Shown one piece after another: positions 6,701 through 48,900 of a DNA stretch of 64,000 bases. The position numbers were made by a program, and so were the translations under genes. The stretch covers positions 1,073,957 through 1,137,956 of the forward strand of contig NW_004797378.1 of assembly GCF_000002075.1 (NCBI RefSeq). The letters are read 5' to 3'. Position 1 is the stretch's first letter. Every line of letters starts with the position of its first letter. Below the pieces are notes generated by a model that saw only the letters and a list, made by a program, of their open reading frames with translations, was not told where the DNA came from and did not search any database. Origin of the DNA: Aplysia californica. Its lineage: Eukaryota.

Positions 6701-9700
6701 TGTTGGTTTGCATGGGCTCTCCCATTCTTTGTTTCGGGATCACAAGCAACTTTCTCAACTGGCGAGTTGTTTATATATGTTTAATTGATCTGTGCGCTGT
6801 GCACATCATCATTGCTTTTCTCACCCTGGGGCAGGATATAGGCCACAAACAAACACTCTCCACCTTTCCCTATCCTGGGCTAGTCGCTTGATGTCACTCC
6901 ACGTCTTCCCACTTTTCTGTACATCCATTTCCGTGACTCTTCTCCAGGTTCCACGAGGTCTTCCCCTTGATCTTTTACCCCTGCAGCTGCTTGACTTCCT
7001 GAGAGTGCGTCCAATCCATCACCAACGTCATCTTCCCCCCTCATCTCTGAACGGGCTCTGTCTGGTTCTTCTTAATACTTCCTCGTTGGTGATCCTGTCT
7101 GTCCATTTGAACCTCAGCAGCCTCCTCAGACACTTGTTCAAGAAAACCTGGATCCTCTTTATGCACATATGGGATGCAATCCACGTCTCACATCCATACA
7201 ACAAGACTGACTTCACATTTGAGTTGAAAATTCTAAGCTTTGTTTGTAATGAGATATCCGTGGTCCTCCAAATCCTGCTCAAAGAAACAAATGCAGGCCT
7301 ATCAGTATCACGCGATGCGTTCTGCGTGTCTGCACGTGCCACACCCTCTCCACTCATTCGCTCCGGCCTTCCATTGTTGGTTCGCATGGGCTCTCTCATT
7401 CTTTGTTTCGGGATCACAAACAACTTTCTCAACTGACGAGTTGTTTATATATTATGTTTAATTGGTCTGTGCGCTGTGCACAGCAGCAGCAATATTCCGT
7501 TATAACCGGCATGTTTGTCTGATGGCGCAATAGCAGTATTTTATTTACAAAGATAAAGAAGGGAAAAAACGGGGGTTTTAGAACAGTGTCTTTATAACAG
7601 ACTTCTCGTTATTTCAGGACTCGTTATAAGTGGACTCCACTGTACCATTCTAAGATTTATAAGTTATTAGTCAAAACTGTTCGATCCCAGTCATTTTTCA
7701 ATTTTGCTCAGGTCCCCTCATTAATGATGACACTCTCGTCCTCCGAGGTAGCTAATTTGTGCACCATATTTTCTTTTGTTTTTTCTTTGAAGGTATGCGT
7801 GTGGCAATATGGTTTGGTGTGTTCAACAAAGATATGTTCCAGAGATCAATCGAGAGTGGTTGCGCGTATCGTTAAAGAGGTAAGACACATATCTTTTTCA
7901 TTGACAAAATGTGAAAGCAGACAAAGCAAATAATTTCTATATCATTGTTTTACCTTTTCAAATTTTATTCATTCTTAATCTTTGTGGTTGTTGGCAGGTG
8001 CTCTGGTGTGATTTGCTCCTTCTTTCCTATCAAGATCTATCATCCTTCTCTCTGTAACGCCTCTAATCTTTGGCACTTATATGACTTTATTATATATTTT
8101 GTTGCAAGTGCCGTAAGACTTTCACTCAAACTAATCAAAATTCTTAGTCTTTGGTCATCATATCATATTGTGTTAAAAGTTATCTTGGTTCACGATTTTT
8201 CTATTCACATGTTTTTTAGAAATGTCCCTGCCCTCATTCATAAATATTCCTCATAATCTTTCAACACAAGGCACAAAGAAATGCCTGATTTTATAGATAT
8301 TTGTTTCATAGATTGTCTTTAAAAGTTTTAGTAATGAGTTCTCTAGTTTGAACAGTTTTTTTCATGTTTTTCTCTTCCAGAGGATAACAAGTCAATGCAC
8401 CATTGACTCTCCTTAGTCAAAATGTGTGATGCAAGTGAAGTGCATGGCCTTTTCTATTTCCTTTTTTATTTTCCTTTAGTAATAGCACCTTCAACTGACC
8501 ACACACTTTATTGTTATAAAGGTCTTTAAAGTTCTTTGTTTGTTATTCAGTTCTGAAGACGAAGAGCTTAACGTGTTTGATGTAGATCTATAAGACCATA
8601 CTTCTTGTCATTCTGTAAGGCTGGTAAACTGACCCATGTCATATTTCTCCGTGGTGTATTTTCTTCATCCCGCTATGGGGCATTTTATTAACCCTATCCG
8701 TATGCCCTGGGGTCATTTTATACCCCTAGGATTGTATTTTTCACATTTTAGAATTCTTCTAGTACAAAGATCTCTTTGACACTTTCAGTATTTCTCAAAA
8801 AATCATTTTGACAGACTGCTATGTAAAGCATACGGATCAGATTAACGAGTACATTTCCTCTTTAAAAGTGGTGGCACAGAGTTCCCCAAGTCGTATGGAT
8901 ACGATAGTAAAACACGGCGTACGGATAGGGACTGTTCTATAGGGTGCATTTTGTGAAAGTTGTGATATTAATATCATCACAGTGAGTGGTTGACGGATGC
9001 TCTGGTGTGGTTTGCTTCTTCTTTCCTATAAAAAGTCTGTCGTCCTCATCTCCCCTCCTTCTTTTTTATGTTTGTTACTCTCTTGTAATACCTCTAATCT
9101 TCTGGTGCTCATATGACCTTATGCAGTTACGAGCACCGTAAAACCTCTACTAAACAAACAATATCATCACTTTGTTTTAATTTTCTGTTTTCTATTCTTC
9201 AGAAAATTTTGCCTGCTTTCAAAGAACATAGAGTTCCTCTGGCCTCAGAATGTCAGTTTGCCACAGACCGAGACATGTACATGGTTCACGAGGACAACAA
9301 GATGATGGAGAACACTGGCCGCTGGGCCTGTGACTTCTGCGGCAAGGCCTTTGTCTCAGAGTATTTTTTGGATGCTCACTTTGGGAATCGTCACTCTGAA
9401 CACATTCAGGTTTTTTTAAATCTTATTTTTGCTCTTGGATTTGGGGTGAATTATAAGGGTTGAGTGCATAGCTGAAAAATGTCAGGGGTCATCAGAGTCA
9501 GCAGGATATTCACTTTACCTTATCTGACATTACTTTCTCCTGTCCTATTTTTTAGGGGGTTTTTTTATTCGATCAATTTGCATATTCAGTTTAAACTTTA
9601 TTTCTCACTTTTGAGTAACAGAGCAGCACTTAATAGCAAAATTTCTGAAGTGATTTATGGTTATCAAAAAGCTGGAAAATGACATGTGAAAGATATAACA

Positions 9701-12700
9701 AAAATCAGCTGCAAGAATGTTCTTGTTTCTCCGTCCGCCTTGGTCCCAATGATGGCTGCATTGTCCATCTGTTCTGTGCACTAAATGTCCAACATTCCTT
9801 TCAACGTGATAAAACTAGTATATCATAGTCATTTGACTGCAGTATAGTATAAGATTTCATAGCTGCCACTTTCCCGCTAAATAGCGGAAACTCCGCTTCT
9901 TCTAGTTTTTCCCGCTACTTTCCTCCTTCCTCCGCTGGACCACTCTCGGTCGCAAATTGCGATACTTTTTTTTTTACACGCGGAAAACACCGAACCGGGA
10001 GAGAGACGAAACGCGGCTTGTGCATGTCCACCCGTAGTTTTCTACTTCCGCTCCTCTTGGCCTAGCGCTAGTTTCACATTGTTTATTGTGGAGCAACACA
10101 GTGTCGATCGAGCATCGGGACGTTGGCGCGCCGAGTTGTCATTGAAAACGGTGGAAATTCGAGAGAAATTGATGCAGAATGCAAAAATAAAAGGTGCTGG
10201 AATATGAAAGAAGCAGCCGGTGTTCGACTTGAGCAATTCATTAGAAAATTGAACGAGCGGCTTGCTGCCCTTTGCGTTTGGTTCAATAAAGTTGCGGCTT
10301 GCGGCTCTCCTGTACAATTGCGGTCCCGTTTGTTTACAGGACGGCTATTCTGGCTGTGACCGTGAATCTAGATCTAGATAATCTATCTCTAGATATAATA
10401 TAGATCTACACATATTTAGATATCTAGATTCTAGATCTAGATTAGACAGCCTAGGCTATAATTTTAATTCAGTTTAGATCTCTAAGTAAGAAACACACTA
10501 CAGGGGCACTAAGTGCAAACGAGGCCGCAATTGTATAGGAGTTCAGAAATCGCTCAGTACAGCAGCAAAGGTGTTGCCTCCTTGATCCAATACTGCTCTA
10601 CATCGATGTGCATGTTTAAAGTGAAAGAAATCTTTTAATGAGACACCAGCTGGCAACAAACACTGGATTTTTAGTCACCAAGTCGACCAAGTCCAAACTG
10701 TGTCAAATTGACTCAAATGCTTGTTAGTCAACTTACTGCCTTTTTTTTTCTCAAATACATTTTAATTCAGTTGCCTATGGTTAACAAACATGACAGTTTT
10801 CCCTTCCAAAACTGTAGGCTAGATTTTCTAGTATATTGCCTCTGGATCTCACTGGTTTTACTCCGGCCTTAGGAGAGCGCATGTACGCCTTTGCGTGAAT
10901 TTCCTCCTTTTTTGAAATTCCTGAGTGGCAGCTATGGATTATACACATTGCAGATTCGCTCAAAAAAAGAAAATAATTCTTTTGTCTACAATTCAGAGAC
11001 AAAGTGAGTTACTCTGGCCACTGCTATTTGCTATTCATTTAGATCCTCTGTTCACACTTAAGTGGAGATTTAGAAGGAACGGCAGAGGTGTTGTTGTTTA
11101 TTCCTTTCAATTTGACGCTGTGCTTTATTTCTGTCTGGCTTTCCATTCTACGCAAAGATGGTCACAAGTCCCCTTTTTCTTTTTGTATGCCTTTACACGT
11201 GGTGTCTTAGAGGCCAACTTTAACTGAAAATGTAGTCTTCTGTAGCATAACTTCCAACCCGTTCAATTTATCTTGGCAAGAATCAGTCTTTGACCTCTTC
11301 TCTTCCTCTCACTTTGTGGTGTTTTCTACAGGTCTGAAGGACATGCTCATCTGTCTGTGGGTGGTTGGAGGGTGCTCGGGTGTGGTTTGCTGCTTCTCTC
11401 CTATGAAACATCTATCGCCCTTCTTCTTTTTATGTTTGTTACTCTCTTGTAACACCTCTAGTCTTCTGGCGCTCAAATGACCTTATGCAGTTGTGAACGC
11501 CATAAAACCTCTACTAAAACTAAACTCAGCTGTCTGGTCAGCTTCTCCGCTAGAGCGTTACAGTCCAGCGTGCACTTAGTGAAACATGCACACAGTGAAC
11601 AGTTTTTCATAAAGTCCAGAACAGGGTGTCCAGCAAAGCCGTATAGTCGTAAAAAAGCCGTAAATTCGACGCCCTGGTCGTAAAGGTCGCAAATGGTAGT
11701 AAATTTGTCTCGAAGGTAGTAAAAATTTGGTAAACGGTCGTAAATTAGCCTGCATACTGAGTGATGAAGCCAGCAAGACTTTTCAGTGAACCCTAGCCTT
11801 GGTACATGACTCCGTTTTTGCAGGTCGCGATTGTGATATAATTATTCGTTCACCTTTTCTCCGTCCGAGAGTACGTTTCACGCGAAAAGCCGGCTATGGC
11901 GGCAGGTGGAAGTGTATGTGACACCGAGGCTCGATCGGGAAAATCAAGATCTACTTTCGCTTTCGTTACCACCCTGAAATTTGACGAAGATAAACTGATA
12001 ACGCAACATTTGTAATATGCAGGTTGTACAGTATAAATGCTGTGTCACCATGCAAACAAAATTTAATAATTACTCGGACCTTTCACTGTGCTGTCACTTG
12101 TGTGGATGGGGGGGGGGTGAAAAGAAAATACAAGCTTTGTCCGATTTTTAGATTGTCGGGTTCGCCAGCGTGACAGGTCAGTGAACCTTCACTACAAGGT
12201 ACGGCATCAGTGAGCACCGGCGTTTGTTGGGGTCGCCAAAGTTCATTAAAAAGTCGAGCGTTACGATGTATAGGACTACGGAATAGGGCAGGGATTATTG
12301 ATTTTTTTAAAGAGACACTCGGGGGAGGGAGGAGCGGATGAAGGCAACACCAGAGGACAAAAACTGTAAGCAAATTTCAGAATTTTGATTAGATTTAGAG
12401 CCCTCTGCAAAGCGCGCGTTGGTGCAGGCCTTGTGTGGAATCGGGATCCTTCATACCTTGTAAGCCGTGTTATTGAAATAAAGTGTTCGCATTTCATTTG
12501 TTGGGTGATAGTAAATTAGAACAATACTGTAGCTTTCTGTTCAAGACTGGCAGATTTTCAGTGCCACTGCCTCTTGCCCTCTCACAGTTCTTACACCTCT
12601 CACACTGAATAGGTTTACTCGAGTCATTACATGTGTGTGTGTGTGCGCGCGTTGTTGTTGTGTAACATGGCCCTGGAAAATGGAGAAGTCGGTTTGGTAG

Positions 12701-15700
12701 TCACCCTGTGTGTACACATTAGGTATAAATCTACCCTCCCTCCCCCTCCCACCTCCACCAAGGCAGTGCTACTGACTGAAACGTCTTTAGGCCATTCCCA
12801 AAGGGAGGATATTAACATGTTCTTATGCACAGTAGAATTGTAAATGGGCTGATTTATCAATGTCATGCTCATACTGTGCTGGACCCGCGTAGAGGACACT
12901 GCTGCCTTTTCTGTCCTCTTCTTTACTATCGTCATTTTCCTCTACTTTTTTTTGTATGTTTGTCGTACTTGTGAACTACTATTTCCGGGGTGCCTTGATA
13001 GTCGAAGCTTGGACTTCTCTGTTGACATCCACCCCTTGTCGCTCATATCACCTATGCAGTTGCAAGCGCCGTAAAAACCTTACTAAATCTAAATCTAGCT
13101 GCAAGCAAGCTTGCGATCGTCTGTCTATCCTCCATTTTGTCGACTGGACTTTGTTGTGTGTTCTTTTCGTTCCATATGTTATGTAATAATAATATATATG
13201 TTATTGATAGCGCAAATTAACTCCCTTTTTCGAGCTGGTGTGGGGCTTGATTTGCTGGGTAGTAAATTTTTTTCCAGGTAGTAAATTTTTTCAGGAAATA
13301 TTGCTGGACACCCTGCAGAATTTTGGTTGTTTAGCAGGTGATCTGATGTGGTTTGCTTCTTCTTTCCTATAAAAAATATATTGTTCTTATCCCTCCTTTT
13401 ATTTGTTTGTTACATACTATCTAGTACCATTTCAAATCTTCGGCACTTATATGACCTAATTGTGTTGCAAGTGCCATAAAGCTCTTACTAAAACTAAAAA
13501 TATCTGGGATTTTCTATTCTTTGTATTTAAAACATTAGCAAAATTCGTACATTACAAGAAAAAGATTAACGTGTCGTGCCAATTTTTAATTTTTCTATGT
13601 GCCTGCTAGATTGTATATGAATAGCTAGACTAGCTTAAAACAATTATGCATGTAGTATGTCTCTCCTTGATTTCAAACAATCAAGTTTTTCTCTGCCAAC
13701 AGAGTGAGAATGCTCTGTGCCTGGCTGACGTTTGCGACGTGTTCCGCTGTGACATTGTGTCGGGGGCGTCCACGCCTGACTACTGGGACATTGCATTGTG
13801 CATGGAAGATGATATGAAAGATCTGTTCTCTCAGTGTGAGGTATGTCTCTTACTCAAACACGATGAAACAAATGCTTTGTTTTCTGTTTGGTTTGAAAAA
13901 AGTATACCATTGGCTAGCTGTTCAGATTTTACTAAGCCCAAAATATTGAATTAAAAAAAAAAAATTCAGTTTTTAAATGTGCTTGTGAAGTATTTTGTCA
14001 AAGTTCAAATTCTAAATGTTGAAAAAAAGAGCATTAAAAAGATTCATAGTTCATGTACTTAAAAAAAAAAAGAATGAAACAGTTTTTTCTCTATCTTAAA
14101 AGTATTCCTTTCTGGGCTTAGAACAGTTGACCAGCTTGCCAACGATACCAATTCAGTGTGGAAAACGTAAAGGGTGTACTTGTAAATGGCAAGTTTGTCT
14201 CAATGTCTAGTGCTCTGCGTTATTTGCAGATCAGTGAAAATATTTCCTATCAGAGATTTTTCACTTTTGTTTTCGTTGTGGTGATCTCCATCAATATGAA
14301 AAAGGTGACCCACTACAATTTGCTAGTTTATCCATTATTCTCACATTTGCCTCAAAACCACCTCTGTTTGGCAGATTTAATATGTAGACTTTAGATTCTC
14401 TTTTTGTTTAAGTGAGTGCTTTACGGCACTTGCAACACAATATAGTCATATAAGTGGCGATAGTTTCTCTTTGACACTGTTCTCTGCATGGGAAAAATAC
14501 CTTTGAACGTTGTGATAGAGTAAGTTTGTTTACCGTTTTTTGTTCATTTTTTATTTTCTTAATCCAGGCACTTGTTGATGAGTGTATCCCAGCAAGTGTG
14601 ACAAAAAATCAGAGCAGATCAATTAAAGGTAAGAGAATTTTTGTTTTCGACAACCTGTCTCATAAAAAATGTCCTTAGAAGGAAATACAGTGGCGTCTAC
14701 TTAAAGCCAAATCTGTGAAACTGCTGGGTTTTCTTTGATTTAGCCAGATTTTCTGTTTAGAAATGTTGCTCGGATAGAAGGAAACCCTAAGAATACATAA
14801 CATTACAACTGAAAGAGCTGCGGAGCTGGCCTACCATAGAAAACTACATCTCCCCCCGACGCTTAACGGCAACTGAGGATGAAAAAGTAAAAAAGTAAAT
14901 GTAAAGTAAGCTCGGATAGAAGAGAAAAAAAGCTTTTTGCAGGTTAATGGTCTTCATTTTAAAAAGACTGCTCTGTTGTATAGACTAGAACGTAAGTTTT
15001 GCAGAGAGGTTTTCTCTGATAGAACATCAGCTATACATTGTGCTCATTACCATCAAAGGAAATCATAATTAATGGAAACAGATGTTCCCACTGACCCGTG
15101 GGAAAGTCAGTGTCAATTATTTTGAGTGATATCATTGCTGTAGATCTTTCTATTTTATATAAGCAAGAGTGATTTAATTTTCTTACTTGAATGATTTTTT
15201 AAACTTGACTGTTTTGAGTGAAGTTGTTATTTTCTGTACTTGTTTGGGGGGCAGATTTAGTCAGTGCTATGGAAGTTAAACCTAAGATTTGTGGAAAGGG
15301 GACTAAATTGTCCCTTTTATGACTAGATCTAACAGTTATGCTCAAACGACATATTCAGTTACAGTTATGCCTTTAAATGTCCTCTTCTTTTTAAAATCTG
15401 ACTCCCACCCTTTTCGTATTTTTATAGCCTATAAGGCTTTCCCTGTTTTATATTCATGGAATGAACACACGCCCGACAGACTTTGATGTACCTGTACTTA
15501 ATATTTATGTATGATAAAAACAGAATCATTATACAGCCAACAACAGTGAACTGATGATTGAAATTTGTTGTCTGTATCGCCGAACTGGGTTGGGTACCCT
15601 GAATATATTATAATATGCAAATGGTAGTGTGAAACTATGGCAATGTATTTAATTTGAAGACATAATTGTTGATGCTCAAGCTCAGCTCTCACAGATAAAT

Positions 15701-18700
15701 ATGTCTTCTAATGAAATAAATTGACATAGCTTCGCACCACTTGATATCTCTATGATTTGTCATGGTCTCAGGTTGCATTAATTTTTTGACTGTAAGTGTA
15801 TGAGTCATTCAATGTCTTTTTTTATAAAAGTTTTATACACTATTCTCCTCACATTAAGTGAACGCTTTTTTTGGGGGGGGGTTTCTTTTCAGACACTGTG
15901 GTAGAAAATGTTTGTTCTTTTCTCACTTGCATGAAGTTTTGGAACACTCCTATGCAGCAGGTAAGTTTTCTATTTTTAAACTTAACAATGGTAATGGTGG
16001 TAATATGTTTTGTTAAATGCTCCCTTTCAGCAGTGTAATTTCATTTAACCCTTAACTGATTCCGTCCATGATTTTTTCAGGCTCTGGACAATTATTTTTC
16101 TTTGTTCAGTTTTAGACTTGGGGTGCATTTATTTAATGCATTACTGTGAAGCTTTAAGTTACTCTAATATGTATTGTCATATACCAAAGTGGTGGGAATC
16201 AATACAGGAATTTTTTTTTACCGATAACAATGACCTATAATCTGTTTGTATTGTACTTTCCGCCATACAAAAACAAATGAGGGAAAAAAATTGCGCAACA
16301 CCTCTTCGAAAATTTCGACTTACCGCATTTTCTCAGCTCTACAAGTCCTTATAATCCATAGGAATCAATACAAAATTGTAGCGATAACACCCTAGCACAC
16401 ATTTATGCAAGAATTTCACAAATTTAGTTGAATATCTTTCTTTGAGGGGCCTTTTTCTTATACCAGGCTCTGTGTTATGTACCCTTAGATCTAGCCTACA
16501 TCACGACAACAAAACAACGATTTTTGCAAGAATTTCGCTGAGTTTCTATCGATATTGGCGCTCAGAGTTTGAGGTCAGGTTTGTTTACAAGTTCTACTTC
16601 CTTTCGACAACGTAAAAAGTAGGAACTAAGTTAAAAAGTGCTCATTTGTTTCGGATTTTGTTGAGCCGCTCACAGCGGTCGAATGGATGCAACGGAAGAA
16701 CTCGGAGCGGCTGTCAGCGGCCAAATGGACGGAATCAGTTAAAACCCTGAATTCTTGTTTTTCCTACCTCCCTAGAATCCTAAATTAAAATCGAGATACT
16801 AGAAGAAATTAGGTTGGTTCATTGTTTTATTTACTGTGTCTTTAATTGTTGTTAGAGTTTAAAAATGTTATGTGTATATATATATATGAATGCACAGTCT
16901 GGACAAAGGGGGAAAAGGTTAACACACTGGTTTTTAGGACCAACTCCATGAGTAAAGTCTTGTGCGTTATCCCTGACTCCTTTTCAGTTAAAGTATCATT
17001 AGACCCAGCGGTAGATCTAGCCTCTGGCAGCTGAATCATCTTAAACATATTTGTATTTTGGTCAGTTCTTGCATATTAGAATAGTTTCTGTACTTAATTT
17101 TCCACTTTTTTGTGGGTTTTTTTTTTTTGGGTAACGATAATATTTTCTTTCCTTCTTTGTGCAGGAGGAGAGCTCCCACATGGCTCTCTACATCGTGCTG
17201 ACCACCATGACCTGTTTTGGCATCATCATCTACAACTTTGTTTTTTACAATTACTTCTTGTAAGTTTTTTTCTTTAAATGGTGTCTAATCGTGAAAACTA
17301 GAAATATCTTAATGACGACCAAAATAACAATTTAAAAGGCTGTACGTGCAGTCAACTCTTTTGTACAGCTGTAAATGTAGAACATTTACAAAAGATAGTG
17401 AAAGTAAAAAACAGGCAACAGAAATGGTGACTGTTGAGAATTTTGTGGAAGGGGGGGGTGGGGGGGGAGATCAATTGAGGTAATGCTGAAAAAAACCCAG
17501 CTTGGGGCTCTCATTAATAAAAGCAAAAAGGAAAAGACAAATGAGGTTTCAGGGACATTTGAATTAACATAATGGTCTTGAACATCTTGCTCTCACTGGA
17601 AATACAGGAGGCAAAAGAAGTGAAAAAGTAGAGTAAGAGCAAATTATTTACTTGATCAGATGGGTGATGGGGAGAGACCAGGTTAACACTTTGCCCCCAT
17701 GGGACACCGATCGGCGCCGGTGTGATATGGCGTGTACCGCACCTGTATCCTGGTCCGTGGGGATAAGTGTTGCGCGCTGTGTGGGTGGAAAGTGTTAATG
17801 TAAGTTTCCTGGGATCATCTGTACAGAGACATGAATGTCGATCCATGATTGCCAATGTCTGTTTCAGACTTGGCACATGATGATGATATTGGTCCTGTTT
17901 TAGAAGTTAACGAAAATACACAATTCTTGTTTGTCAAAAATACTTGTAAGATATTTCTTGTCTTTAATTTTCACCCCTTCTTTCTTCTATGATGTTCTTG
18001 ATACATCACGAAAATGTATAATTTTAAACTTTTTGTCGTACCATGGACATCACAGAAGTTGGCAAATTTGACATTCCTGGTTTCCTAAAAGATGTTACTT
18101 GAGTGCCCTGTTAGTCATCTGGATCTAATTCTTCTGTACGAATTAAGCTACAAGCACAGCATGGATTCGTATTTAGGAATAAAAAGTGCACCTATCAATA
18201 CCAAATTTGCTAGTCTATTATATATTTGGCAACTTGGAAACACTCACTTTTCCCATAAAACTGCGACAGCTACAGAGTTGAAAGTTGGCATGTACCTGCG
18301 AAAAGATAGATAGGTCCCCATGACGGAGCCCGATTTTTGATTATTCATTTCCTGAATTTAGAAAAATATATTTGACAAAAAGTTCCCGTCCTTCTTTGAT
18401 CTTTGTGATTATTCTGCTAAGAAACAAACAAATCTGCGTAGCTCCAAGAGACAGGGTGAGTAATTTTTTAGAGTCACCTGTAATACGTGGAGACGTGATC
18501 CATTGTATGCCTCCAAAGAGTTGTTTTTGATATATGGCCCGAAGAGAAAAACTTTTTAATTACAGAGTCAAGATTTTTTTTTAAAATATTTTTGTTTGGT
18601 CGCTAGCCTGTAGAAGTGCCAGGCAAAGTTTCGTGGGCATAAGTGAATTTGTCAATGAGCTAGATTTTTCTTTAACATTGTCAGAGGAAAATGAACAAAC

Positions 18701-21019: not shown

Positions 21020-21642
21020 CAGTAGAAACCTGATATAACAGGGATGGTGGGACCATAGAAAAAGTCCTGTTGTACCCAAACCCTGTTAAATCAGAAATGC
21101 AAGAGAAGTAAGCATTTGTGGACCAATCCAGCTGTATTTATTCTTGGGTAGTTTCCCTTGCCACAAGTACCCACGAACAGGGGTTTTGGCATTGTGGCAG
21201 GCCTGCGCATGACACATTACATGTGCATGTTGCAAGGCTTGGGAATTGATCGAAGTCTGGGGAGCGCTGCGTGTGCTTGCAGTGGCGTGGTTTGCATGGG
21301 CTTGCTCCATCACTGCANNNNNNNNNNNNNNNNNNNNNNNNNNNNNNNNNNNNNNNNNNNNNNNNNNNNNNNNNNNNNNNNNNNNNNNNNNNNNNNNNNN
21401 NNNNNNNNNNNNNNNNNNNNNNNNNNNNNNNNNNNNNNNNNNNNNNNNNNNNNNNNNNNNNNNNNNNNNNNNNNNNNNNNTTGACAAGCTATAACCGACT
21501 GGGTTCCGTTGAGGCCCTGTTATTACCGATAACTTTTAATAGAGACAAAGAGTAGGAAGATACAGGGATTTTAAAAATCCCTGTTATTAACGGATCCCTG
21601 TTATTTCCGGGCCTGTTATACCTGTATATATGGTTTCCACTG
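21020..21642. mobile_element. Tigger-type MITE spanning a gap
   Basis: TA|CAGTAGAAACC...ATAACAGG and CCTGTTAT...GGTTTCCACTG|TA. Confidence 0.7.
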
Positions 21643-22980
21643 TAATTGCTTTGTTTACATAATCTCTTAAATGGATAGAAACACATGTACAGGCTGTAGG
21701 ATAACCCTTCATTACAACTTTGCCATTGTCAAATCTTTTATGCTGCATAGCAGCCCTTCGGAGACCAAAGGATATGCCCCCCCCCCCAAAAAAAAATAAA
21801 AAAAATAAAAACCAAATGGACGCTATGGAATGATTCAAAAGATTAAATTAATTATCAGTATGAAAGGTCAGTGACAGTGGTTTGGTTTGAGCAGAGAAAT
21901 ACACTAACGATAAAACCTTGTCATGTATTGCTGGAACAGAACAAGACCAGCTGAACCAAGAGGCAAAGAAAAGAAACGAAACTTCACAGTTCCCAGTGGT
22001 GGCCTCCAACCACCCAACAGTGTAGTACTAGGAGTAGGTACCACAAAGAAAAAATTCTAATTGCATGAAAATAGATTTTCTTTATAAATTGGACAGGACG
22101 TGCTGTACCATTCAAATTCATAGAAAACGTAGAAAATTCCTTGCAGCATGCAAAACGAGAAAAAAGCAGGACTTGGAACAATCGCACAGTCAGGTAGTGA
22201 CAATACACATCATACAGTAGAAATTTACTACATGTATAGTGGCACCCGCTGCTGCGGGATATATCCCTACAGCGAGACCCTCCGGAATCCCCCTTTTTTT
22301 TCTATGTAAACTCAATTACCTGTGCTTGGGTTGAACAGGGCAAGGAAAGACCTGAACTCGGATACAGCGGAAGTGATCGACGAGCGAGCTCTGGCTGGGG
22401 AGAAAAGGGGGGGGGGGGGGGGGCTGTTACAGGCGGGCTTCAAACCTGCAGTCAGCGGTGCGGCATTGTGGTTGACCAGTCGAGTCATCAGTGAGTGAGG
22501 TGGGGCAGGCGGCAGAAAGAAATAGTGCGGAGAGACGCGTTACGTGAGCCACTCCAAAAGTGATATGCCATAGACTAGACGTTCAGTATGATAGCGTATC
22601 TATCATAGCCCTAGGCTTAGGTTAGGCCAAAAAGTAAAAGAAGAGGAGAGCGTGTAGTGTGTGATTCCTGATTCATTGAATTGCGATCTTTGATGCTCAG
22701 GCATACGCACGCATCCACTTCATCGGTTCTAAAGTAGGCCTACCGGTGCGATAGACAGCAAAAGCGACAAGGCCGAGGAAAAGAAGGCTTCCAACAAAGA
22801 CAAAAGGAATTAATTCTATTCACCCGAACTAAAGACCGAGATAATCAACGAAATTGACTAGAAAAGGAAGACGGATCAAAAGCGCAAATTCTATTGCAAT
22901 GAAAAGGGGGGGGGGGGGGGGGGGGGTAATCGTGTGGCTTTTAAGAAACTTTTCGGTAATTCCCCTTTATATTCCTGTTA

Positions 22981-37749: not shown

Positions 37750-40225
37750 CCTGGAAAGTGCCAGTTTTCAATATTTACAGAGACATCTCTTTGATAAGTC
37801 ACACGGGGAAAGAACATGCAAAGATCTTAGAACAGCAGATAAGACCTATTGAAGAGACAAACCCGAGCAAAGCTCAGTTTGGATTCCGAAAGGGAAGAGG
37901 ACACACGGATGCTATAGATTTATTCGCATTACGACAGCTATGTGAGAAAACCATCGAACACAGCAAAGAATTCAACATCGTCTTTATAGACCCGGAGAAG
38001 GCTCTTGACAGAGTGGATCATGCAAAACTGGAAAACGCTCGAAAAGTATGGCGTCAGAGGACAATTTTAAGATAATGGCAGAGCTCTATATACCAACAGC
38101 TGACGCTAAGTAAGAACAAAGGAAGACAATACAGACTGATTCAAAATAAGATCTGGAGTACAAAAGGGATTCGTTTTTTCTCCCATCCTGTTTATATAAC
38201 GGAAGACGCAAACTAAAGACCAAAAAGCCTAAAAAAACTTCTAATACTTTTATATGCAGACGACCAATAAGTGTCACGACGAGGTGGAATCAGAAGCTCG
38301 TCAATTTTGGGGCATGTGGAGTTATTGGTATCCTCTGAAAGCTGATTTATTTGCTTTGCTTCTAATGAAATAAATATCCATTTATCTTGAATAAAAATCA
38401 TGATGTTTGCGATTGAACGAAGTGAGGTCGCCTGGTTTCAGTGGTGGAATTAGCGAGAAAATGGCCGCCAAAGTTTGGTAATTCCAATAGCTAAATAGTC
38501 TTTAAAAACTGAAAAATGACATAATATATTGTACCTTTTATCAATGTTTTTCTGTAAAATTCACACGAAAATATGTTTTTATATGGACACGTAAGATGTA
38601 AAGCCAAAAAATAAAAATGCGATAAAATTTACAAACTGTTGGGAAAATGCGTTGTTTCTCAACACCTTCGTTATTTTGACGAGCGCCTGATTTCACAACG
38701 CTGTCTCACCCAATGTCTTATTCATCCAAACTAACAAAGCCTCTAGAATCATACAACACTGATCGGAACAACAGTTGCAAGAAATTTGACTTAAAAATAA
38801 GAACATCAAAAATAGAAGTTATGAAAGTGAGCCGAAACCATAGTTCCTTGAATATGCATGTCAAAAGTAAACAACAGAAACAGGTGAAGGAGTTTAAATA
38901 GATCTATATAGGCAACACTTTTTTCTGAAATCGGATCCATAGACAGAGAAATGCGACATCAAAAAGCCAACGCTGTCTCCTACCCGCTCGCACCCCTCAT
39001 ATCTCATCACAAAACAACTCCAAGTACATAAAGTGACAACTTATTACTTCAATATTTATACCAACATTATGCTATCAGTGCCAGACCTGGACTTAAAAAA
39101 AACCCCATGAAAGCAAAACCACTGCATGCAAGATGAAACGTCTCCGCAAAACCCTTTAGGGGAGGGGTTGGTTTATAAACCTAAATCGGTAACTATGGCC
39201 TTTTTAGATAAAGCCCTATAGCATTGAGGTATAACAGGAGAACATAATATGTAAAATGTAACTTTAATTTTTTTGTTTAAGTATACGGTTGCCTTGGTAA
39301 CGGCCGCCATATTGAAAATAAACAGCTTTCATTTGGTATTGAGTATATTTCTCCATGTACCAAAAATTTGGCTGGTAAATTTTAAAAATCCTTTTTTACT
39401 TTTAAAAATAATTTTGTATTTACCGACCAACAAATTTGGTACATGGATAGATATACTCAATACAAAATTCCAAACTTTGGGATCTTGGATATCTTGAATA
39501 GGAAAAAAGATAGAGATGGGTAACTGACCTACCCCCTCTTGTCTCTGAATTCGATTACATGTTCATCCATTTAACTCACTCATGAATGCTTCGATTTTTT
39601 CCCCACTTGTATAAAGTTAGGTTAGGGTTGAATAACAAGCCCTGAAAATTTCATTGGAATTAAAAGGAAAATTAAAAAAGTAGATGAGAAAAAAACATTA
39701 AAAAATGGGCGTTTTGCGAAAAACATAATAGGCAAGATCAAAGTTCTAGGACAGAAAATCGGAAAGATGATGATTGTAACACAAAAAGGAAGCACGTTTT
39801 AGATTTACAAGTGATTGGAGTTATATATTACGTACAAAGTCCGGATAGCATAAATTGATCAAACCCCTCCCCCCCTTTAACATCACAAGACGAGACAGAC
39901 AGAGAAATGAGGAAGTAAGAGCAGCTACTGGCACTGATTCCTGCCTGCATTTTATAGAAAGACAGAGAATAAAATGGTTTGGCCTCGACCTGTTACGTAT
40001 GTCACCTAGCCAGCAAGCCTCGAGAGCCTATAACACCAAGCACTGAAGGTAAAAAAGGAAGAGGAAGGCCACGCAAAAGGAGGATTGAGGGCGTCAAGGA
40101 AACCATGAGAAATCATAATTATCCAAATTAAATGAGCTGCGGAGCTGACCTACCACATAGAACTGCATCTCCCCTCGACGCTTAACAGCAACAGAGGAGG
40201 AAAAAAGTAAACGTAAAAAAGTAAG
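37750..40225 (+). mobile_element. Degenerate RTE-like LINE interrupted by two MITEs (~38277-38700 and 39158-39876)
   Basis: YRDISLISHTGK..AKILE..AQFGFRKGRG..DAI..LRQLCEK..VFID.EKA.DRV; later KQVKEFK and IERQRIKWFG; TIRs GTGGAATCAG..GCTCGTCAA and AGGGGAGGGGTT. Confidence 0.8.
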
Positions 40226-40546: not shown

Positions 40547-41863
40547 TAGTGACGTCCCAAACAAACTTAAAAACGTAATCACCCACTCATCATATTATAG
40601 CCTTGCACTACCCGCTCATGCTGCAAACCAACTTAAAGCTTAATAAATTCTGCATCATCTGACACAATATTTCATCACGAGCGCGTGTTAATAGACGCCC
40701 AAGATTTTGTCACTTAAAATTTACTTTAAAAAATCAGGCTTGGCAAAGTTTTTCGAAATAGGAGGAACGTAAAATGGTGTTTTTGCGCGAGGAATGGACT
40801 TGTATAGAATATCAAATGAAAAGAGAAAACCACTGCCTCTACAATATACAGCATCTTCTGATGATACGTTTCAAACAGTTGGAAAACAGAACAGTTACGA
40901 ATTGTTTTTGTCAAGCAGGAAACCTTCTTTTTGCAAATGGACTTTCTTAGCTAGATTTTCGACATATCCATCTGTCATTGAGGAACAAAGGCGACGAAAT
41001 CTCCATGGTTTTGGGTGGTCTGGGGTGAAATGAACAAAACCACCCTCATGAGAATCACTCTATGGCTTGGTTTAGTGAACTACATCGCGCAAGTGCTGGA
41101 ACGGCATGTCTTACCCTTATTTCCGTCATGGTGTCATTCAAATAGCCGTCTCCATGCATAGCAAAGCACTTTCTCACAGTGCTATTGCCACTGGACAAAT
41201 TGTGGAACATTAGATTAAATCAATGTTATACTGGTCACCAATAAATAGCCCCGATATGGATCCCAAAGGTATGCAAAGTCCCATGAAACAGCAGCTAAAG
41301 AAAAGCGACTTTGCTCCCAAAACAGAAATTCTGTTTGCAACCCACTGTGACATTTGGGATGAAATGACACATAATTATATATAAAATTTAATAGAGTCAA
41401 TGGCCACTCAACAAAACGAATGGCCCCTAATCAAAATAACAATAAGGACATTTTAATATTAAGTCCAAGTTTTGCGTGATATAAATTTGTGATTGCTCTG
41501 TCTTCCATTTTGTTTGAAATCGTCACAAAATACAGTAGAAGCAAAATATCGTTTTTACAGAGACAAAATTCTCCATACGTTGGATACGCAATTCGTGTCC
41601 ATTCTATCAATATTGATGCTCCTCAATACACGCGTGAAGACACTTCTACGTTTCTTTGCTTTCGCACAATTTTGCTAACCCTGATTTTTTAAGGTCAATT
41701 TTTACCATATCTAAGGCGTCTCTTAAGAGATGATTTAATAAAGTGTCACAATATGACGCAGAATGTATTAAGCTTTAAATTGATGTACCACATGCGTAGG
41801 TAATGCGAGGCTTTAACACGATGATTGGGTGATTCCATTTTCAAGTTTCTTTGGGCGCCACTT
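40547..41863 (+). mobile_element. Fossil Tc1/mariner element with long (~130-bp) imperfect TIRs
   Basis: 40549-40670 is an imperfect inverted copy of 41740-41862; internal relic YIAQVLERHVLPLF (41081-41122) resembles Tc1 transposase. Confidence 0.65.
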
Positions 41864-42572
41864 TGGAGTACCACCAAGATGTGACAGGATTTCAAAAACT
41901 TTGTAAGGAAATGCAAGAAAATCAAAGGAAGTTAACATCACACAAAAGAAAGAAAACAAAACTGTCAAATAAAATAAAAAATCTCCACAGGCTTCCAAAT
42001 CTGTGCTTCCGATCAGTTCACTATGTCAAACCTTCAATGTTATTGAACTATCATTGAGAGCAAGATCTGAAAAACAAGAGCATTTCAGATTCATTTTGTA
42101 TATGGCAACATTTGTCCAAAATACAGAAGATTTCTTATAGTGTAATGGCGAAAAATATTTCACGTTTTCTTAGCTCCTCTTGTGGACTCTCTCAACTAAG
42201 TGCACTTTTGTCACATCAGCCCTGTCTCAAAGCAGGACGTTGAAGTTCACACACAATCATACACACAGACAATCCAAATCAACTGAGTTTTGAAACAGTG
42301 ACATCCCCAACTTGCACATTTTGAATATGACCAGAGCATGTCACAACTTTGTGGATAACACACACACAAGCACTATCCGTATCGTCGTTATATTTTTGAC
42401 GTTGATCTACTCAATATTGTACTCTTAAACATTCCATGTCTCTAGACTTTTGCTTAATTTTATATGCAAAATTCGAACATTTACAATATATGCATGAACA
42501 GGCCACAATGTTGTACAAACACACAGCATACATGTACCTCCGAACAAAACAATATCATTTTCACATCTCCCT

Positions 42573-45135
42573 CTAATCAGAACAGTTTCTTTCTTGTCGT
42601 GATGAGTTCTCTTGCTCTTCGTCCAGTACTAAGTTCCCCTGAAGGCAATTGCAGTCACAGCCAGTGAGAAATACAATCTGTGGGCTGAATAGTCTTTTAG
42701 CCATTTAATCCCTCTTTGTAAGTGAAGTACAACGACAGCAAGACTTACATTGGCTGCTGCATACTCAAAAGAGAGGCGAGACTCCTGCCTGGAGATTCCA
42801 GAAGCGACCAAGTCCATCATAGGTGGGTCTTTATCCCAGAACATGCAGCAGATCATAGCCATCGTCTGTACATCTCGTACTTGACCATAATGGGACAAGC
42901 TGAAAGACAAAATCCAAGCACCATGATTACTTGGAAACCACACAAAATAATACTGAGAACATTATCAAGATTTTCGATAATACTTTGTCATAGCTATGGT
43001 TTTATATTGGAAAATTTGTAGGAAATTTGTAAACTGCGCCTAAAAATATTTGCTTTCTACAAGTCAAACTTTTGCTTATATTTTCAACAAGCACTTTTTT
43101 TTAAAATTCCATGCTGTGACCACTTTCATTTTTAAAAGATTGTTAAAGCGAAAACATAGTTAACACTACAACATTAATAACAAATGGTGTGACACACGAC
43201 AACAGTATTAATCAAAACTTCAACTCTTTCAGAATAAAAAGACTTTTACCTGCTATAAGAAATCAGAACTTTCCTAACACTATTGTACTCACTCAATGTA
43301 ATATACATACCACAAAATGACATGAGAAAAAAATAAGCAGATACTGCCCCTGAACTTTACATTACTACTACTACTACTAATAAATAGCATTTGTATAGCG
43401 AGTGTCCCAACTCACCCCAGCAGACAATAGAACACTCAGAAACATTCTCAGCTTCCCGGGAAGCATATAGTGCAAGCAGCTGGTTTAGCGCTCAAACACT
43501 AACAAACTGACAAGATCTTTCACTGTCTATAGCTGGATACTCATTTTCACCTGGGTGAAGTGGGGAAAATTCGTGTAAAGTGCCTTTCCCAAGGACACAA
43601 CCACGGGCCCGCGGCTTGAACCCCCGAACCCGCAACCTCACGTTTACGAGTCCGGTAGCCTAACCACTAGGCCACCGACGCCACACATACTAGTGGCAAA
43701 CTGTCTAGAAAATAAACAGAGTACAGCCCATGTGAGAAAGAATGAGTTGATACCTTTTCGTAACAACGGCAAAAACAAAAATATGACAAGTAACATACAT
43801 AGCAAAGGTTGTTTTTTTTTTACTTTGTTTAGTTTTTTGTTTTGTTTCCACGCCCAAGAAGGTTAAAATACGAACAACTAATAACAAGTCAGGTTGTTGT
43901 TTTTTAATCCTCTTAAAATGTCTCGCAGACGACAAAACGTGAACAAAAGTACAACGGGAGCAAACACCAGCAACAGTGTCGTCAGCTCACAATGTTTCCA
44001 CTATGCCCCGACCAAACGGGTGGTACGCCCATGGAGGTCCCAGCTCTACGTTAGGTGAAGGACGTTGCACTGGATGAGACATCCGATGAATCAGTTTCCA
44101 CAGTTGAAACGTGGGGATTCAGAACAAGCTTCATTACTCGGAGTTAACTTGATGATTGTTGGAGTATTGAGTCATTTTATCTGTGCGGACCCGTCCGACG
44201 GATCTCCAACCTTATTATGATGGAAACTGTAAGCAAACAGACCCTGGGATGGATCCTGAAGAGGTTGGGGGGGGGGGGTAGAGCAGAGATGGACATGTTC
44301 CGACTGTAGTGACCCCAACACTGTGGACAAGGCGTGACAAGGTGTGTGTTATTTTGTATTCATTTGACCCCCTTCTCACGATGATCTAAATACCCAGTTG
44401 TGAACACTTGTGAATGGGAGGCAGAGGCTGTTCTTCAAGACTCAGTAAGGTTTTGATGGTTACAGACTTACATACCACACCGCCGGCAAACAATAATATA
44501 GAAAAGAATATTGTTAAAATAATTTACTTCATGTTCATTCTGACAACAGTCACAAATATCTTGCATCATGAAAACCTTTTTAACCAAGTTAGCTTTTTGA
44601 GTCTGTTAGTCAAGGCGAGCAAGGGTTGGTTTAATTTGAATAAATAGAAGTGCATCCACTATCCACCCGACAAAGATCCTTTAGCTCGGGGAAAAGGCAA
44701 AACAGACAGATAGAAACAACAAAAAGCAGTAGACCTTACAGTAGCATTCTCCAAACATCTACTGAAAAAAAAGATAAGCATCAAGAGACACAACCACAGT
44801 GTAGAGTTTAAATGCATCTCTCAATTTTCTAGGGTTATGTAAGTTTTAAGTGATATGACCCCCTTATTCAACATCCATCTCCAGTAGAACCGAGACAGGT
44901 GGACAGCGTTGAAATCTCCTCAAACAGAACAAGCTCAATAAATGCCCCACTGAGGGAACATGCACACCATTACAACTAAGAATATAAAGAAATACACTGA
45001 AATGTGTGTAGTACGTTGTAAAAAAAGACATGACAAGTACATAAAGATTCGTTGCCTGCACCACGTCCTTCGTCCAATTTTCATGGCCACCGCAGCATTG
45101 TGGTCACAAGTGCCCGGAGTATCCTGCAAATCTTG
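42573..45135 (-). pseudogene. WDR59: Decayed, intron-containing 3' fragment of a WDR59 (GATOR2/Sea3)-like gene
   Basis: Minus-strand exon relics in colinear order: 45135-45056 (DLQDTPGTCDHNAAVAMKIG..KDVVQ, 1-nt frameshift), 44103-43991 (LWKLIHRMSHPVQRPSPNVELGPPWAYHPFGRGIVET; acceptor reads CAA), 42899-42749 (LSHYGQVRDVQTMAMICCMF...), 42665-42573 (TGCDCNCL...stop). These match remembered human WDR59 segments ETCQKNAASALLVGRKDLVQ, PWARHPFGRQLLESL, LAHYCRLRDVQTLAMLCSVF and CPTGCGCHCL. The 43991/42899 junction is phase-compatible. Confidence 0.8.
43365..43685 (-). mobile_element. tRNA-derived SINE (Meta/MESC-like core, L2-like tail)
   Basis: Minus strand: GGTGGCCTAGTGG (A box), GGTTC.. (B box), GTTGTGTCCTTGGGAAAGGCACTTTAC..CACCCAGGTG core, tail CGCTATACAAATGCTATTT(AGT)n; absent from the homologous site at ~26160. 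Confidence 0.8.
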
Positions 45136-45836
45136 CCCCCAAAAATACATGAATAAAAGTCATCAAAACATGCAAGTGGTGAGATCCAATGTCTTTCAGC
45201 CCTTCTATATTACTTTTAGGACGCAACATGTCATACATACACAAAGAGCAGGAACAAAGATTGCTTAAATAGAACTTCTATTCAAGTCAAGAATATATTT
45301 TTAAAATGAAGGTACTTTATGCCCCCATTAACACAATTCAGATCATCCAGAAACTCACGGAGCCAACCCAAGCTGAGAGCAATACAACATCCCAGCAGAA
45401 AGACCGAGATACTTTATACTACAAATTCTTCCTTAATAGGAACCCAACTCAGGCCTTCCATGTGCGACGACAAAGTAATTTCAGTGAGAACTCTGGGGTC
45501 ACATAACGTGGCTATTGGTGATCAGAGATAAACAAGGTCACACAGATTTTGCTGGTTGATACACATATCTCTCCATTAGCAAGCTGTTCTCCTACACAGG
45601 GTCAGTGCCTGCAAACCCATTTCAGTTTTGTTATAGTACAGGTTTTACGGCGCTCGCAACTGCATAAGGTCATATGAGCGCCAAACCCATTTTCATTATC
45701 ACCAACAATCAAATTATACAGATATCAATCTATATGTGCCTCTTTTACTTTGATACACGGGGAACGAAACGGCAGAAATCTGCCAGCACACACATTTTAA
45801 TCATGGTAATTATATAAAGATGAGCTATCCAACCTG

Positions 45837-45846
45837 TATAAATATA
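45837..45846 (+). promoter_or_regulatory. TATA box of knottin copy 2
   Basis: TATAAATATA 78 nt upstream of ATG. Confidence 0.7.
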
Positions 45847-45914
45847 AACTGACAGTAGTTAACACCCCAACTGTTTTCGAACCAGCACACAGTCAACACC
45901 GCTCAAGATACATC

Positions 45915-48900
45915 ATGAAGGTCCTACTCTCTACACTGACCCTCATCATGATGATAGGCTTCAGTCACCAACAGATATGTAGGCGAAGGAACAGGGAATG
46001 TCAGGTGAACTTACACATAGAGAAAAATGGAACAACATTGTACTCTTTGTTCATTACAACAAGCTAAACCTAATGATTTTACCACCATGAAGAGATTTAA
46101 AACGTTAGCTAAGCGTCTGGAAAGTTTATTCACCTTGCTTCATTTTGCTGAAATCTGCATATATGTAATGTAATGGCAAGGCACATGGATATGACAATTC
46201 ATCTAGACATCAATATTTCAATAACAGTTTTTGAGGAATCAGGACAGGAACGTCAAAGGGACAAAAAAAGAAAGCCCAGATTTCATGTTCAACCATAAAC
46301 TATTCTAAAAAATTAAGTTCACTGAAACTGCCAGGCCCTTTGAATTATGAAACTGACTCTTTTTTCCTTTTAAAACATGGAACCAATTTTTAGTTTTAAA
46401 GACACCAAGACAATTTATTGAAAAATTCAGGAGTTTCCTACATGTACTTAATGGGTCTTTTCAATCTACCTTTAGGTACAAGGAAAAGATATCATCTTTT
46501 CCAAAACACCAACACTTAATTCTCATATTTTTTTACAAAACAGAATATTACAAAAGTGTTTGTGCTCATGAGTCTGGAACTTACGAAAAACAACAAACAA
46601 ACACTGTAAAAGGCCATTACGGGACATGGTCTGTTCAAACTTGTGACACCATGGGGCCTGATATTTACAGAAATGTGACAGACTATGCAGTTAAAACAGT
46701 ACCACTCAACTCCTCCAAAACGCAGTTCTCTGGAAATATCTGTGTTATTTCCCTTTTTGGCTGACTGTGAGGATACACCGGAAAATAAAGAAAAGAATGC
46801 AAAGTAACAAAAGAGACATGGGTACATGATTAGTATAAAAAATAGAGAAGATTCGAATAAAAGATTGCAAATACGAGCATTCTAAAATCAAAGATGTAAG
46901 TGGGAAGATAGGATGCCCTATGAAAAAGTCTAGCACCAGAGACATCTAAAACAGTGTGGCTTTGTTCTTGACAAGGGTACCTGGAATGCTATAACCTAAC
47001 AATACGAATGGAAAGGAAGATTGAGGCACAAAAAGATGTATATTTATGTTTCATTGATTAATCAAATGCTTCCAACAAACGCAACCAGCTATTCAAAATT
47101 CTGAGAAAGCTAGGCATAGATTGAAAGAATTTAAGAACTCTTTGGGAATTTTTACTGAGACCAACCCCGCTACAAAATTGAGGGAAAGAACAGAAGATGT
47201 AAACATATTTTAAGAGGTATTAGGAGTGGCTGTATACATCCCAAGACATCTTTAACGTATACACTGAAACAATTCTAAGAAGTCCAAATGAAAGTACAGC
47301 ACTCAAAGTGAATAGAGAAAGTATTAACAAAATCACATATTCTGAGATTGAGTTTAAGTAAAGAGAAGCATTTTGACACAATAATGCCAATGGTCATTTC
47401 GTGCAGGGAAGAAGCAATCAACAGAGGGAAACAAAAGAAGTGGGACCTGTCAGTGGCGCCGCCCAACAACTTTCAGATATGCTGACAACTTACGTTTAAT
47501 TGCACATTCATGGACCTTCCATTGTTTCTAAATATTTGTGTAATGGAAAGTGGAAAAAAGAGGTTATTTTCAAATGTTCAGAAACTAATTGGCATTGCAA
47601 TGTCTAAAAAAAACCCTGTTAATCCGATTAGTAACCTTGTAAGCAAAGGTGAAAAGATTCAGCACATAACACTCTTCAGATATCAAGGAAATACAGTATA
47701 TCATTACATTCAATGCCACGTGTACCCCGGAAAAAATCCCCAAAATTGCAATAGCTAAAGACAGGCTTTTTTAATGAGTCCAGTCCTCAAAACAAACATC
47801 TCACTGAAAACCAAAAGAAGAGTTTTAAAAGACTGTGTGTCGCCAACCCCTCTCTGTGGCTGTGCAGCTGTGAATGCTGACCCAAGACAAACACAATACT
47901 TAAAGAAAAAGAAGTGTGTTTTCATAGGAGACCATTGGAAGGAAAAGAAATCAAATAAGATAGTGGGAAGGAAGCGTGAGGGGGTGCTCACTAATAAAAA
48001 CAGAAAGAGACAAATACAGTGTCTGGACTTTTGAAAAAGGCCTTGAACACCTTGTTCTAACTGGAAAAACTGAGGGCAAAAAGAGACAGGACACGACCAG
48101 GAACTTAGGAAAACGAACTGATGGGTGACAGGGACTAATCAGGAAAGTGTTCGGTTTTTTTTAGAGCATCAGAGAAGATAAATAAGCGGCAAACCATGAC
48201 TGTCAATGTTTGTTTCTGATTTGCCACTTCATGAGGATGATAATACTGTTACAGATAAAAATCCCAGCAGATGCAAATATCCAATTCCTACTTGAATTTG
48301 TTTAGAAAAAAATATGTATAGAGTCTTTCCCAAAAATGTATCTCTGACTGAGCAGCCAGCAATCAAACGGCGTGCTTGAGTTAAAAAGAAGGCGGTAAAA
48401 TCATAAAGGCCAATTCCAGCATAGAAGAAACAGGATAGACAGACCAACAACAGACGGATAGAGCATAAATACCTCCTACATGTGGCACCCTTAAACCACT
48501 CACTGTGATAATGTTCTGCCCTCTAACTCAAACAAACAACATGTTGCTTTCACTATTCAGGTTGGGAGAAACCAGTGCTGTGACAACTTGGTCTGCAGGC
48601 AAAAGAATCTGGGATCTTCCAGAACAACATGTCAGTTGAGAGATACGGTAGGCCAATGCAGGTCAGAGGACCAGGCATGCGACACAGACCTCAACTCCAG
48701 ATGTTGCGCAGGTAACTTGGTTACTGTTGTCCTGGTAACTAATCACACTGTCTCAACAGACGTTTGCCTGATTAATTAAGTTCTGGGCCCTTTTAGCACA
48801 GTGTGATGTTTCCATGAAAAAGAACAGAGGAAACTTTAGGGACTGTGTTTGGTTATTCTGAGAACCATCCAACAAAAAGAAGTTGGTGATTGTACAGGTT

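Follow-up and report, generated by a model that had tools for sequence, protein, structure and literature searches.

How did pieces of the GATOR2 gene WDR59 come to lie antisense before a gene for a knottin-like protein in Aplysia californica? The window, a 64,000-nucleotide stretch of one genomic contig (here C108), had been interpreted from its letters in an earlier sequence-only reading, which saw four WDR59-like peptides upstream of a knottin gene and offered two origins for them: either the ancestral knottin gene was nested antisense in a WDR59 intron, or a WDR59 fragment was captured beside it. We find that the four segments are decayed copies of WDR59 exons 19, 20 and 21 and of the end of exon 26, and that they probably stem from tandem duplication of a segment with a nested knottin-like gene inside it, followed by large deletions. 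The features on which the argument is built are collected in Table 1. Coordinates are those of the window, and numbers above 64000 run on along C108 (contig position = number + 1073956).

Table 1. Features of the WDR59 and knottin-like array in order along the contig
Feature	Position	Strand	Remark
Leftmost copy of the unique flank marker	21849..22024		Recurs after copies 1, 2 and 3; only those three places, among 20 genome matches
WDR59 intron 20 relic, joined directly to the copy-1 upstream region	25845..26245	-	80% match to host intron at C108:1170931-1171336
Knottin-like copy 1 (exons 26616-26711, 27710-27854, 30359-30630)	26253..31309	+	Reading frames open
WDR59 3' UTR and last 92 coding bases of exon 26 (TGCDCNCL), relic	41872..42689	-	blastn 72% vs intact 3' end at C108:1147733-1148527, E 1e-130
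Exon 21 relic (42899-42749, RDVQT) and intron flanks	42698..43367	-	Both splice sites intact
Dispersed high-copy repeat, insertion in relic intron	43414..43685		92-96% matches on many contigs
Intron 20, exon 20 (44103-43991, HPFG) and intron 19, relic	43688..44886	-	Acceptor CAG>CAA
Exon 19 relic (45136-45056, CDHN)	45009..45137	-	Acceptor lost, 1-base deletion, GC donor
Spacer common to copies 2 and 3: ~160 bases, then old dispersed repeat reaching the knottin upstream region	45138..45476
Knottin-like copy 2 (exons 45915-46004, 48561-48711, 51514-51785)	45446..52137	+	NCBI XP_005095662.2 (database protein P0007), keratin-associated protein 4-1-like
WDR59 intron 19 and exon 19 relic before copy 3	59967..60806	-	15/82 exon bases differ
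Knottin-like copy 3 (exons 61528-61617, 63745-63895; exon 3 1.2 kb past window end)	61093..64000	+	NCBI XP_012936425.1
Intact WDR59, 26 exons	143370 to 74480 (C108:1217326-1148436)	-	Outside the window, starts 10 kb right of window end
Knottin-like copy 4	118906-123259 (C108:1192862-1197215)	+	NCBI XP_005095663.1; inside WDR59 intron 11

The four peptides were found on the minus strand in the order given by the sequence-only reading, at 45111-45073, 44037-43993, 42898-42839 and 42665-42642. A tblastn search with P0002, a full-length homologue of 1023 residues, confirmed three of them as WDR59 (E 0.003, 5e-9 and 3e-19; search space 263 kb). The fourth, TGCDCNCL, was not significant at the protein level (E 5.8), and its identity was established by the DNA match over 41872-42689. 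A PDB search using two of the relic segments alone retrieved only WDR59 or WDR59-containing chains, with weak scores (E 0.03-0.06), and the two segments correspond to adjacent stretches of human WDR59 (7uhy_D 709-732 and 734-758). The proposal that the relic is a DNA-level copy with its introns kept also stood, as 2632 of the 3266 bases of 41872-45137 align with the host gene.

Each of the lesions that had been read from the letters could be assigned. The frameshift is a 1-base deletion in exon 19, the CAG>CAA acceptor belongs to exon 20, and the loss of sequence after the RDVQT exon amounts to ~22 kb, from intron 21 up to the final 92 coding bases. To these are added the vanished acceptor of exon 19 and its GC donor; the relic moreover extends through the 3' UTR to 41872, and copies 1 and 3 are preceded by relics as well. 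Compared with the host, the exon 26 piece differs at 20 of 92 coding bases and at 103 of 648 UTR bases, exon 21 at 3 of 151 (every one synonymous), exon 20 at 6 of 113, and exon 19 of copy 2 at 7 of 81. The disabling lesions of the copy-2 relic thus comprise a frameshift, two dead acceptors, two large deletions and the absence of the 5' half; with introns kept and an intact parent elsewhere, it is an unprocessed partial pseudogene. Read by eye, the junction of the 22-kb deletion (42689-42698) has a few inserted bases next to a short microhomology, GACT, the kind of trace that microhomology-mediated joining leaves.

An intact WDR59 was present where the sequence-only reading had suggested looking for it, to the right of the window on the minus strand. 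Its 26 GT-AG exons encode an open frame of ~1020 residues, with 717 of 992 aligned residues (72%) identical to P0002. The latter matches 7uhy_D at E 4e-214 and WDR24 (7uhy_C) at E 4e-33, which identifies WDR59 rather than WDR24. P0002 contains PF00400 (WD40) and PF17120 (zf-RING_16), and in the Aplysia gene PF17120 scores above its cut-off in exon 26. The gene is transcribed: a spliced RNA contig over its exons has exon 20 joined to exon 21 across a GT-AG site, and the donor positions of exons 19 and 21 were taken from RNA joints.

All three exons of copy 4 of the knottin-like gene sit on the opposite strand in the 12.4-kb intron 11 of this intact WDR59. The intron is of phase 0 with GT-AG ends and joins residues that are contiguous in P0002. 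A knottin gene antisense inside a WDR59 intron, the first of the two origins that had been offered, is therefore a feature of the present-day locus. The other origin, in which a WDR59 fragment was captured from elsewhere in the genome, is not supported, given that 22 of the 23 genome matches of P0002 fall in this locus (20 in the intact gene and two in the relic). The remaining one, a weak match to the WDR59 RING region at C595:27089-27268 (41%), likely represents another GATOR2 subunit.

The knottin-like gene occurs in four copies in the genome, all on this contig (4 matches among 7 candidates). In every copy, three exons with open frames encode a protein that begins like a signal peptide and goes on with four C-C-CC-C-C repeats. 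In proteins P0005-P0007, these repeats hold 24 cysteines, and PF07740 reaches 20.5 bits, just below its cut-off of 21. The predicted knottin character follows from cysteine spacing. A single-sequence structure model gave a pLDDT of 64 and a pTM of 0.32, and the best Foldseek matches were double-ICK toxins at E 0.014 and 0.029, which are not significant, none lying at E <=0.001. The NCBI name for copies 2, 3 and 4 is keratin-associated protein 4-1(-like), while no database protein was found for copy 1. HMMER against 1.84 billion representatives returned eight hits, of which seven were distant, and the five distant ones inspected were cysteine-repeat proteins; an Atlas search with one knottin exon gave only leads below 0.9. 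As judged from sequence similarity in the databases searched, the four-member family appears to have no close relatives elsewhere.

Copy 3 is transcribed and spliced. A knottin RNA contig carries its letter at 27 of 28 listed places, that of copy 1 at 12 and that of copy 4 at 7 (here and below, comparisons of RNA-contig letters cover only the places listed). Copy 4 is represented as a gene by an NCBI protein model. For exon 3, comparisons of copy 1 with the other copies give pN/pS values of 0.9-1.1, and the comparison of copies 2 and 3 gives 0.42.

The arrangement of the free copies points to the source of the relics. Host DNA, in host order, precedes all three, and the plus-strand order of 3' UTR, exon 26, exon 21, exon 20, exon 19 and knottin is identical in copy 2 and in the host. 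A common flank follows each free copy; that of copy 1 enters the relic 3' UTR just as that of copy 3 enters the 3' UTR of the intact gene. Each host-plus-knottin unit has the flank marker in front of it, which makes four occurrences in register, and the array reads flank-host-knottin four times over, the last unit with the whole host. A knottin remnant was sought in the 86 kb left of copy 1, a stretch with N gaps, and none was found. A candidate fifth remnant at 17504-17616 proved to be a dispersed repeat and was rejected, and direct repeats flanking copy 4, considered as a target-site duplication, were discarded as members of a very abundant family. Elsewhere in the window, exon-like pieces of a C2H2 zinc-finger gene lie at 9098-13954 on the plus strand (CDFCGKAFVSEYFLDAHFGNRH), and decayed reverse-transcriptase/RNase H-like frames of non-LTR retroelements were recognized by eye at 7028-7444, 28279-29016, 33013-33573, 37719-38075 and 54510-55667.

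Divergences within the array are of similar size for host and knottin DNA. Relic and host introns differ at 43 of 319 (13.5%) and 47 of 319 (14.7%) positions, and free and nested knottin copies differ by 13.8-16.1% over 927 columns of non-coding DNA. Copy 1 stands 16-17% apart from copies 2 and 3 in non-coding sequence, which are themselves separated by 6.5%, and the leftmost flank marker differs from two others at 28 of 159 and 36 of 167 positions. These values fit an early duplication, a second one soon after and a later one that would have given copies 2 and 3.

Since host order is preserved before all three free copies, the flank marker recurs four times in register and the divergences are equal, tandem duplication followed by deletions is the likely course of events. 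A stretch of ~50 kb, made up of the 3' half of WDR59 and the knottin-like gene nested in intron 11, would have been duplicated in tandem. The new copy would have lacked the WDR59 promoter and the first 11 exons, and its WDR59 part would for that reason have been dead from the start. The relic before copy 2 would then have been eroded by deletions of ~18 kb and ~22 kb and by point lesions, while the knottin gene, carrying its own TATA-containing upstream region, would have survived outside the host. Further unequal crossovers likely made copies 1, 2 and 3, with copies 2 and 3 arising last. The direction and order of these events are what we infer, and the nested copy is, with good probability, the ancestral one.

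The ends of the knottin units bear on that direction. Homology between copies 1 and 4 stops exactly where a repeat starts in copy 1, and 12 of 38 matches to this repeat start there or one base earlier; copy 4 therefore looks like the empty, older state at its right end. At the left end, an old repeat before copies 2 and 3 crosses the point where copy-4 homology starts (10 of 41 matches), so that here copy 4 is the derived one and must have lost that flank in place. Against nested ancestry, the 18-kb deletion that it needs must end at the first base of exon 19, exactly where the host homology of the copy-2 relic stops. The adjoining spacer (45138-45300), compared with the deleted host interval, gave no match beyond shuffled controls (score 39-42; shuffles up to 48-55).

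An 18-kb deletion is not needed if the knottin gene originally lay downstream of WDR59, as its neighbour, and copy 4 entered intron 11 in a separate insertion. The duplicated unit would then begin in the knottin upstream flank, take in the 3' part of WDR59 and end where exon 19 starts; the point at which exon 19 meets the spacer in copies 2 and 3 would be the duplication breakpoint itself. Such an insertion would explain the cut repeat at the left end of copy 4, and it is the usual origin of nested genes according to the parts of PMC8467205 considered here. It is kept alive by the left end, where copies 1 and 4 both drop the older upstream repeat within ~8 bases of one point, 360-470 bases before the start codon. 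This history, however, presupposes one more knottin at the far left, ahead of the flank marker at 21849, where none was found; the right end of copy 4 would match the repeat terminus in copy 1 by chance, and the equality of relic-host and free-nested divergence would be a coincidence. Because a lost leftmost copy and two coincidences have to be granted, we consider separate insertion unlikely. The cut point shared by copies 1 and 4 may mark the edge of the knottin promoter. By eye, the upstream repeat contains a reversed tRNA B-box-like motif.

A second question is why parts of the copy-2 relic have remained so close to the host. Relic and host are distinguished by 16 of 345 bases in the internal exons (19-21) and by 180 of 1176 in the introns, a contrast that is in part expected because the host is constrained. 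At intron-derived neutral rates, these exons should have accumulated 14.3 synonymous and 20.6 amino-acid changes; 9 and 7 were observed (P 0.10 and 5e-4). For exon 21, the figures are 3 synonymous changes (at 42800, 42806 and 42863) against 6.0 expected and no amino-acid change against 9.2. Amino-acid changes do not make up a significantly low fraction of all changes (P 0.16), and exons younger than their flanks, as after gene conversion, therefore fit the data. The close match of exon 21 to the host most likely reflects later conversion from the intact gene. Among the five relic exon pieces, the exon-26 piece and exon 19 of copy 3 have decayed at least as far as neutrality predicts (10 amino-acid changes each vs ~5). 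In exon 19 (81 bases), private changes number 8 in copy 3 and 1 in copy 2, compared with 12 and 15 in 529 bases of intron (Fisher P 0.002), a contrast also to be expected had conversion brought copy 2 back closer to the host. The 8 private changes in the copy-3 exon 19 relic (60724-60805) are clustered, at ~4x the local rate.

Some observations fit conversion less well. Conversion ought to reduce synonymous differences as well, yet these fell only from 14.3 to 9 (P 0.10), and exon 21 is the sole relic exon that retains both splice sites, with all its differences silent and its frame open for 39 more codons. A sharp-edged conversion tract could not be demonstrated, since low divergence tracks the exon plus 15-40 bases; in the parts of PMC2720389 considered, conversion tracts cross introns too, though that study selected for such cases. 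Ongoing conversion was considered from a contig of a probable DNA run that has host letters at 2 of 3 diagnostic exon-21 places and was rejected, because its depth of 75, compared with ~55 nearby, fits a merge of two paralogues.

Transcript data cover the same interval. Four runs were aligned to 41500-53000, and two of them contain spliced RNA contigs; in both, the spliced contigs over the relic exons carry the intact-gene letter at all 6 listed exon places. No transcript of the relic or of copy 2 was seen among the contigs listed for these two RNA-contig runs; contigs drop rare variants, and this absence is consequently not proof of silence. In one raw-read run, the exon-21 bin has no depth in either host or relic, though host reads, being 98% identical, would map there; this run therefore has no bearing on the relic. 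A search for RNA datasets over 42400-52300 returned none and favours neither view.

Use of the copy-2 relic as coding sequence, whatever its origin, would be another reason for the closeness of exon 21. The knottin promoter might drive divergent transcription of a short WDR59 fragment, or exon 21 might be used, far from the rest of the gene, as an alternative last exon without the RING domain. The intact splice sites of exon 21 and its three silent differences in 151 bases agree with this, as does its frame, which runs 39 codons to a stop and then into the old 3' UTR with an ATTAAA; exon 19, furthermore, contains an in-frame ATG and faces copy 2 head to head, with ~780 bases between its start and the copy-2 start codon. 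Set against these points are a frameshift in exon 19 and a dead acceptor in exon 20, an amino-acid share that is not significantly reduced, and the two RNA-contig runs, in which no contig with relic letters is listed and 42268-42651 is without depth. We regard coding use as rather improbable, and equally so a RING-less WDR59 fragment that ends in relic exon 21, is made from the knottin promoter or by read-through splicing from WDR59, and is kept by selection. If real, such a fragment could act on GATOR2/mTORC1 signalling. Gene conversion is the likelier account of exon 21, and we infer that the copy-2 relic is probably without function, leaving the conservation of this one exon as an oddity.

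That the array is an assembly artefact, with collapsed or duplicated haplotypes of the WDR59 region, is scarcely credible in spite of N runs at 21318-21480, 35108-35412 and 56231-56383, given copies 6.5-17% apart, a transcript of copy 3's own and a contig of a probable DNA run that covers 42300-42768, and with it the 22-kb deletion junction, at 2 differences, even if that contig may not be independent of the assembly.

Tandem duplication with subsequent deletion is a known kind of partial gene duplication, and the locus is a clear local case of it, not a new mechanism. It illustrates a route by which a nested gene can move out while the host itself is preserved: the segment is duplicated and the host half decays, with the probable ancestral state and the derived one both visible within 125 kb. 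Unnesting is reported to be rare in the parts of PMC8467205 considered, and a case with readable breakpoints is useful for that reason. A family of four knottin-like proteins, predicted to be secreted and built of four repeats each, also comes to light here under the mistaken name of keratin-associated proteins. In practical terms, the relic can mislead read mapping to WDR59 exon 21 (98% identical), and it could pass lesions to WDR59 by conversion, as TNXA does to TNXB. Searches of the open-licence literature retrieved no paper on the locus or on the activity of the knottin-like proteins.

Several known systems resemble parts of this locus. The tandem multi-ICK peptides Hi1a, xibalbin-3 and DkTx, the top fold matches, share the signal-peptide-like start and the tandem C-C-CC-C-C repeats; the Aplysia proteins differ in having four repeats rather than two, their fold matches have E values of 0.014 and weaker, and toxin activity is not known for them. 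The Drosophila "tinkering loci" (bioRxiv 10.64898/2026.08.09.743762), in the portions of that preprint considered, likewise place duplicated gene fragments beside other genes and repeats. Their fragments come from many unrelated genes, whereas the Aplysia fragments derive only from the adjacent host, in host order, and re-transcription was not seen; the relic stretch holds host DNA and repeats only and is therefore not a tinkering locus.

A parallel in working, though not in membership given that no genes are shared, is the human RCCX module. As described in the parts of PMC8362596 considered, intact duplicated genes there have as neighbours the 3' fragments STK19B and TNXA, left by a tandem segmental duplication whose breakpoints fell inside genes. 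The second of these fragments is a truncated pseudogene on the opposite strand, and unequal crossover and conversion act on the RCCX repeats. In Aplysia, 3' gene fragments also stand beside intact duplicated genes, but the retained gene was nested wholly in an intron of the broken one, most of the host copy has been deleted, and the copies are much older, being ~15% apart compared with the 96-98% identity of the CYP21 pair. Intronic antisense nested genes are the other close relation. The portions of PMC8467205 considered describe mammalian nested genes as arising mostly by insertion of young duplicates, with unnesting rare (4 events in human and mouse, against 56 lineage-specific nestings), and hold no description of escape by tandem duplication with host relics. 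Copy 4 resembles these cases in being short, in occupying a large intron of a long gene and in lying on the strand opposite to it; it differs in that it has three exons and in that it stays put while its duplicates leave the host.
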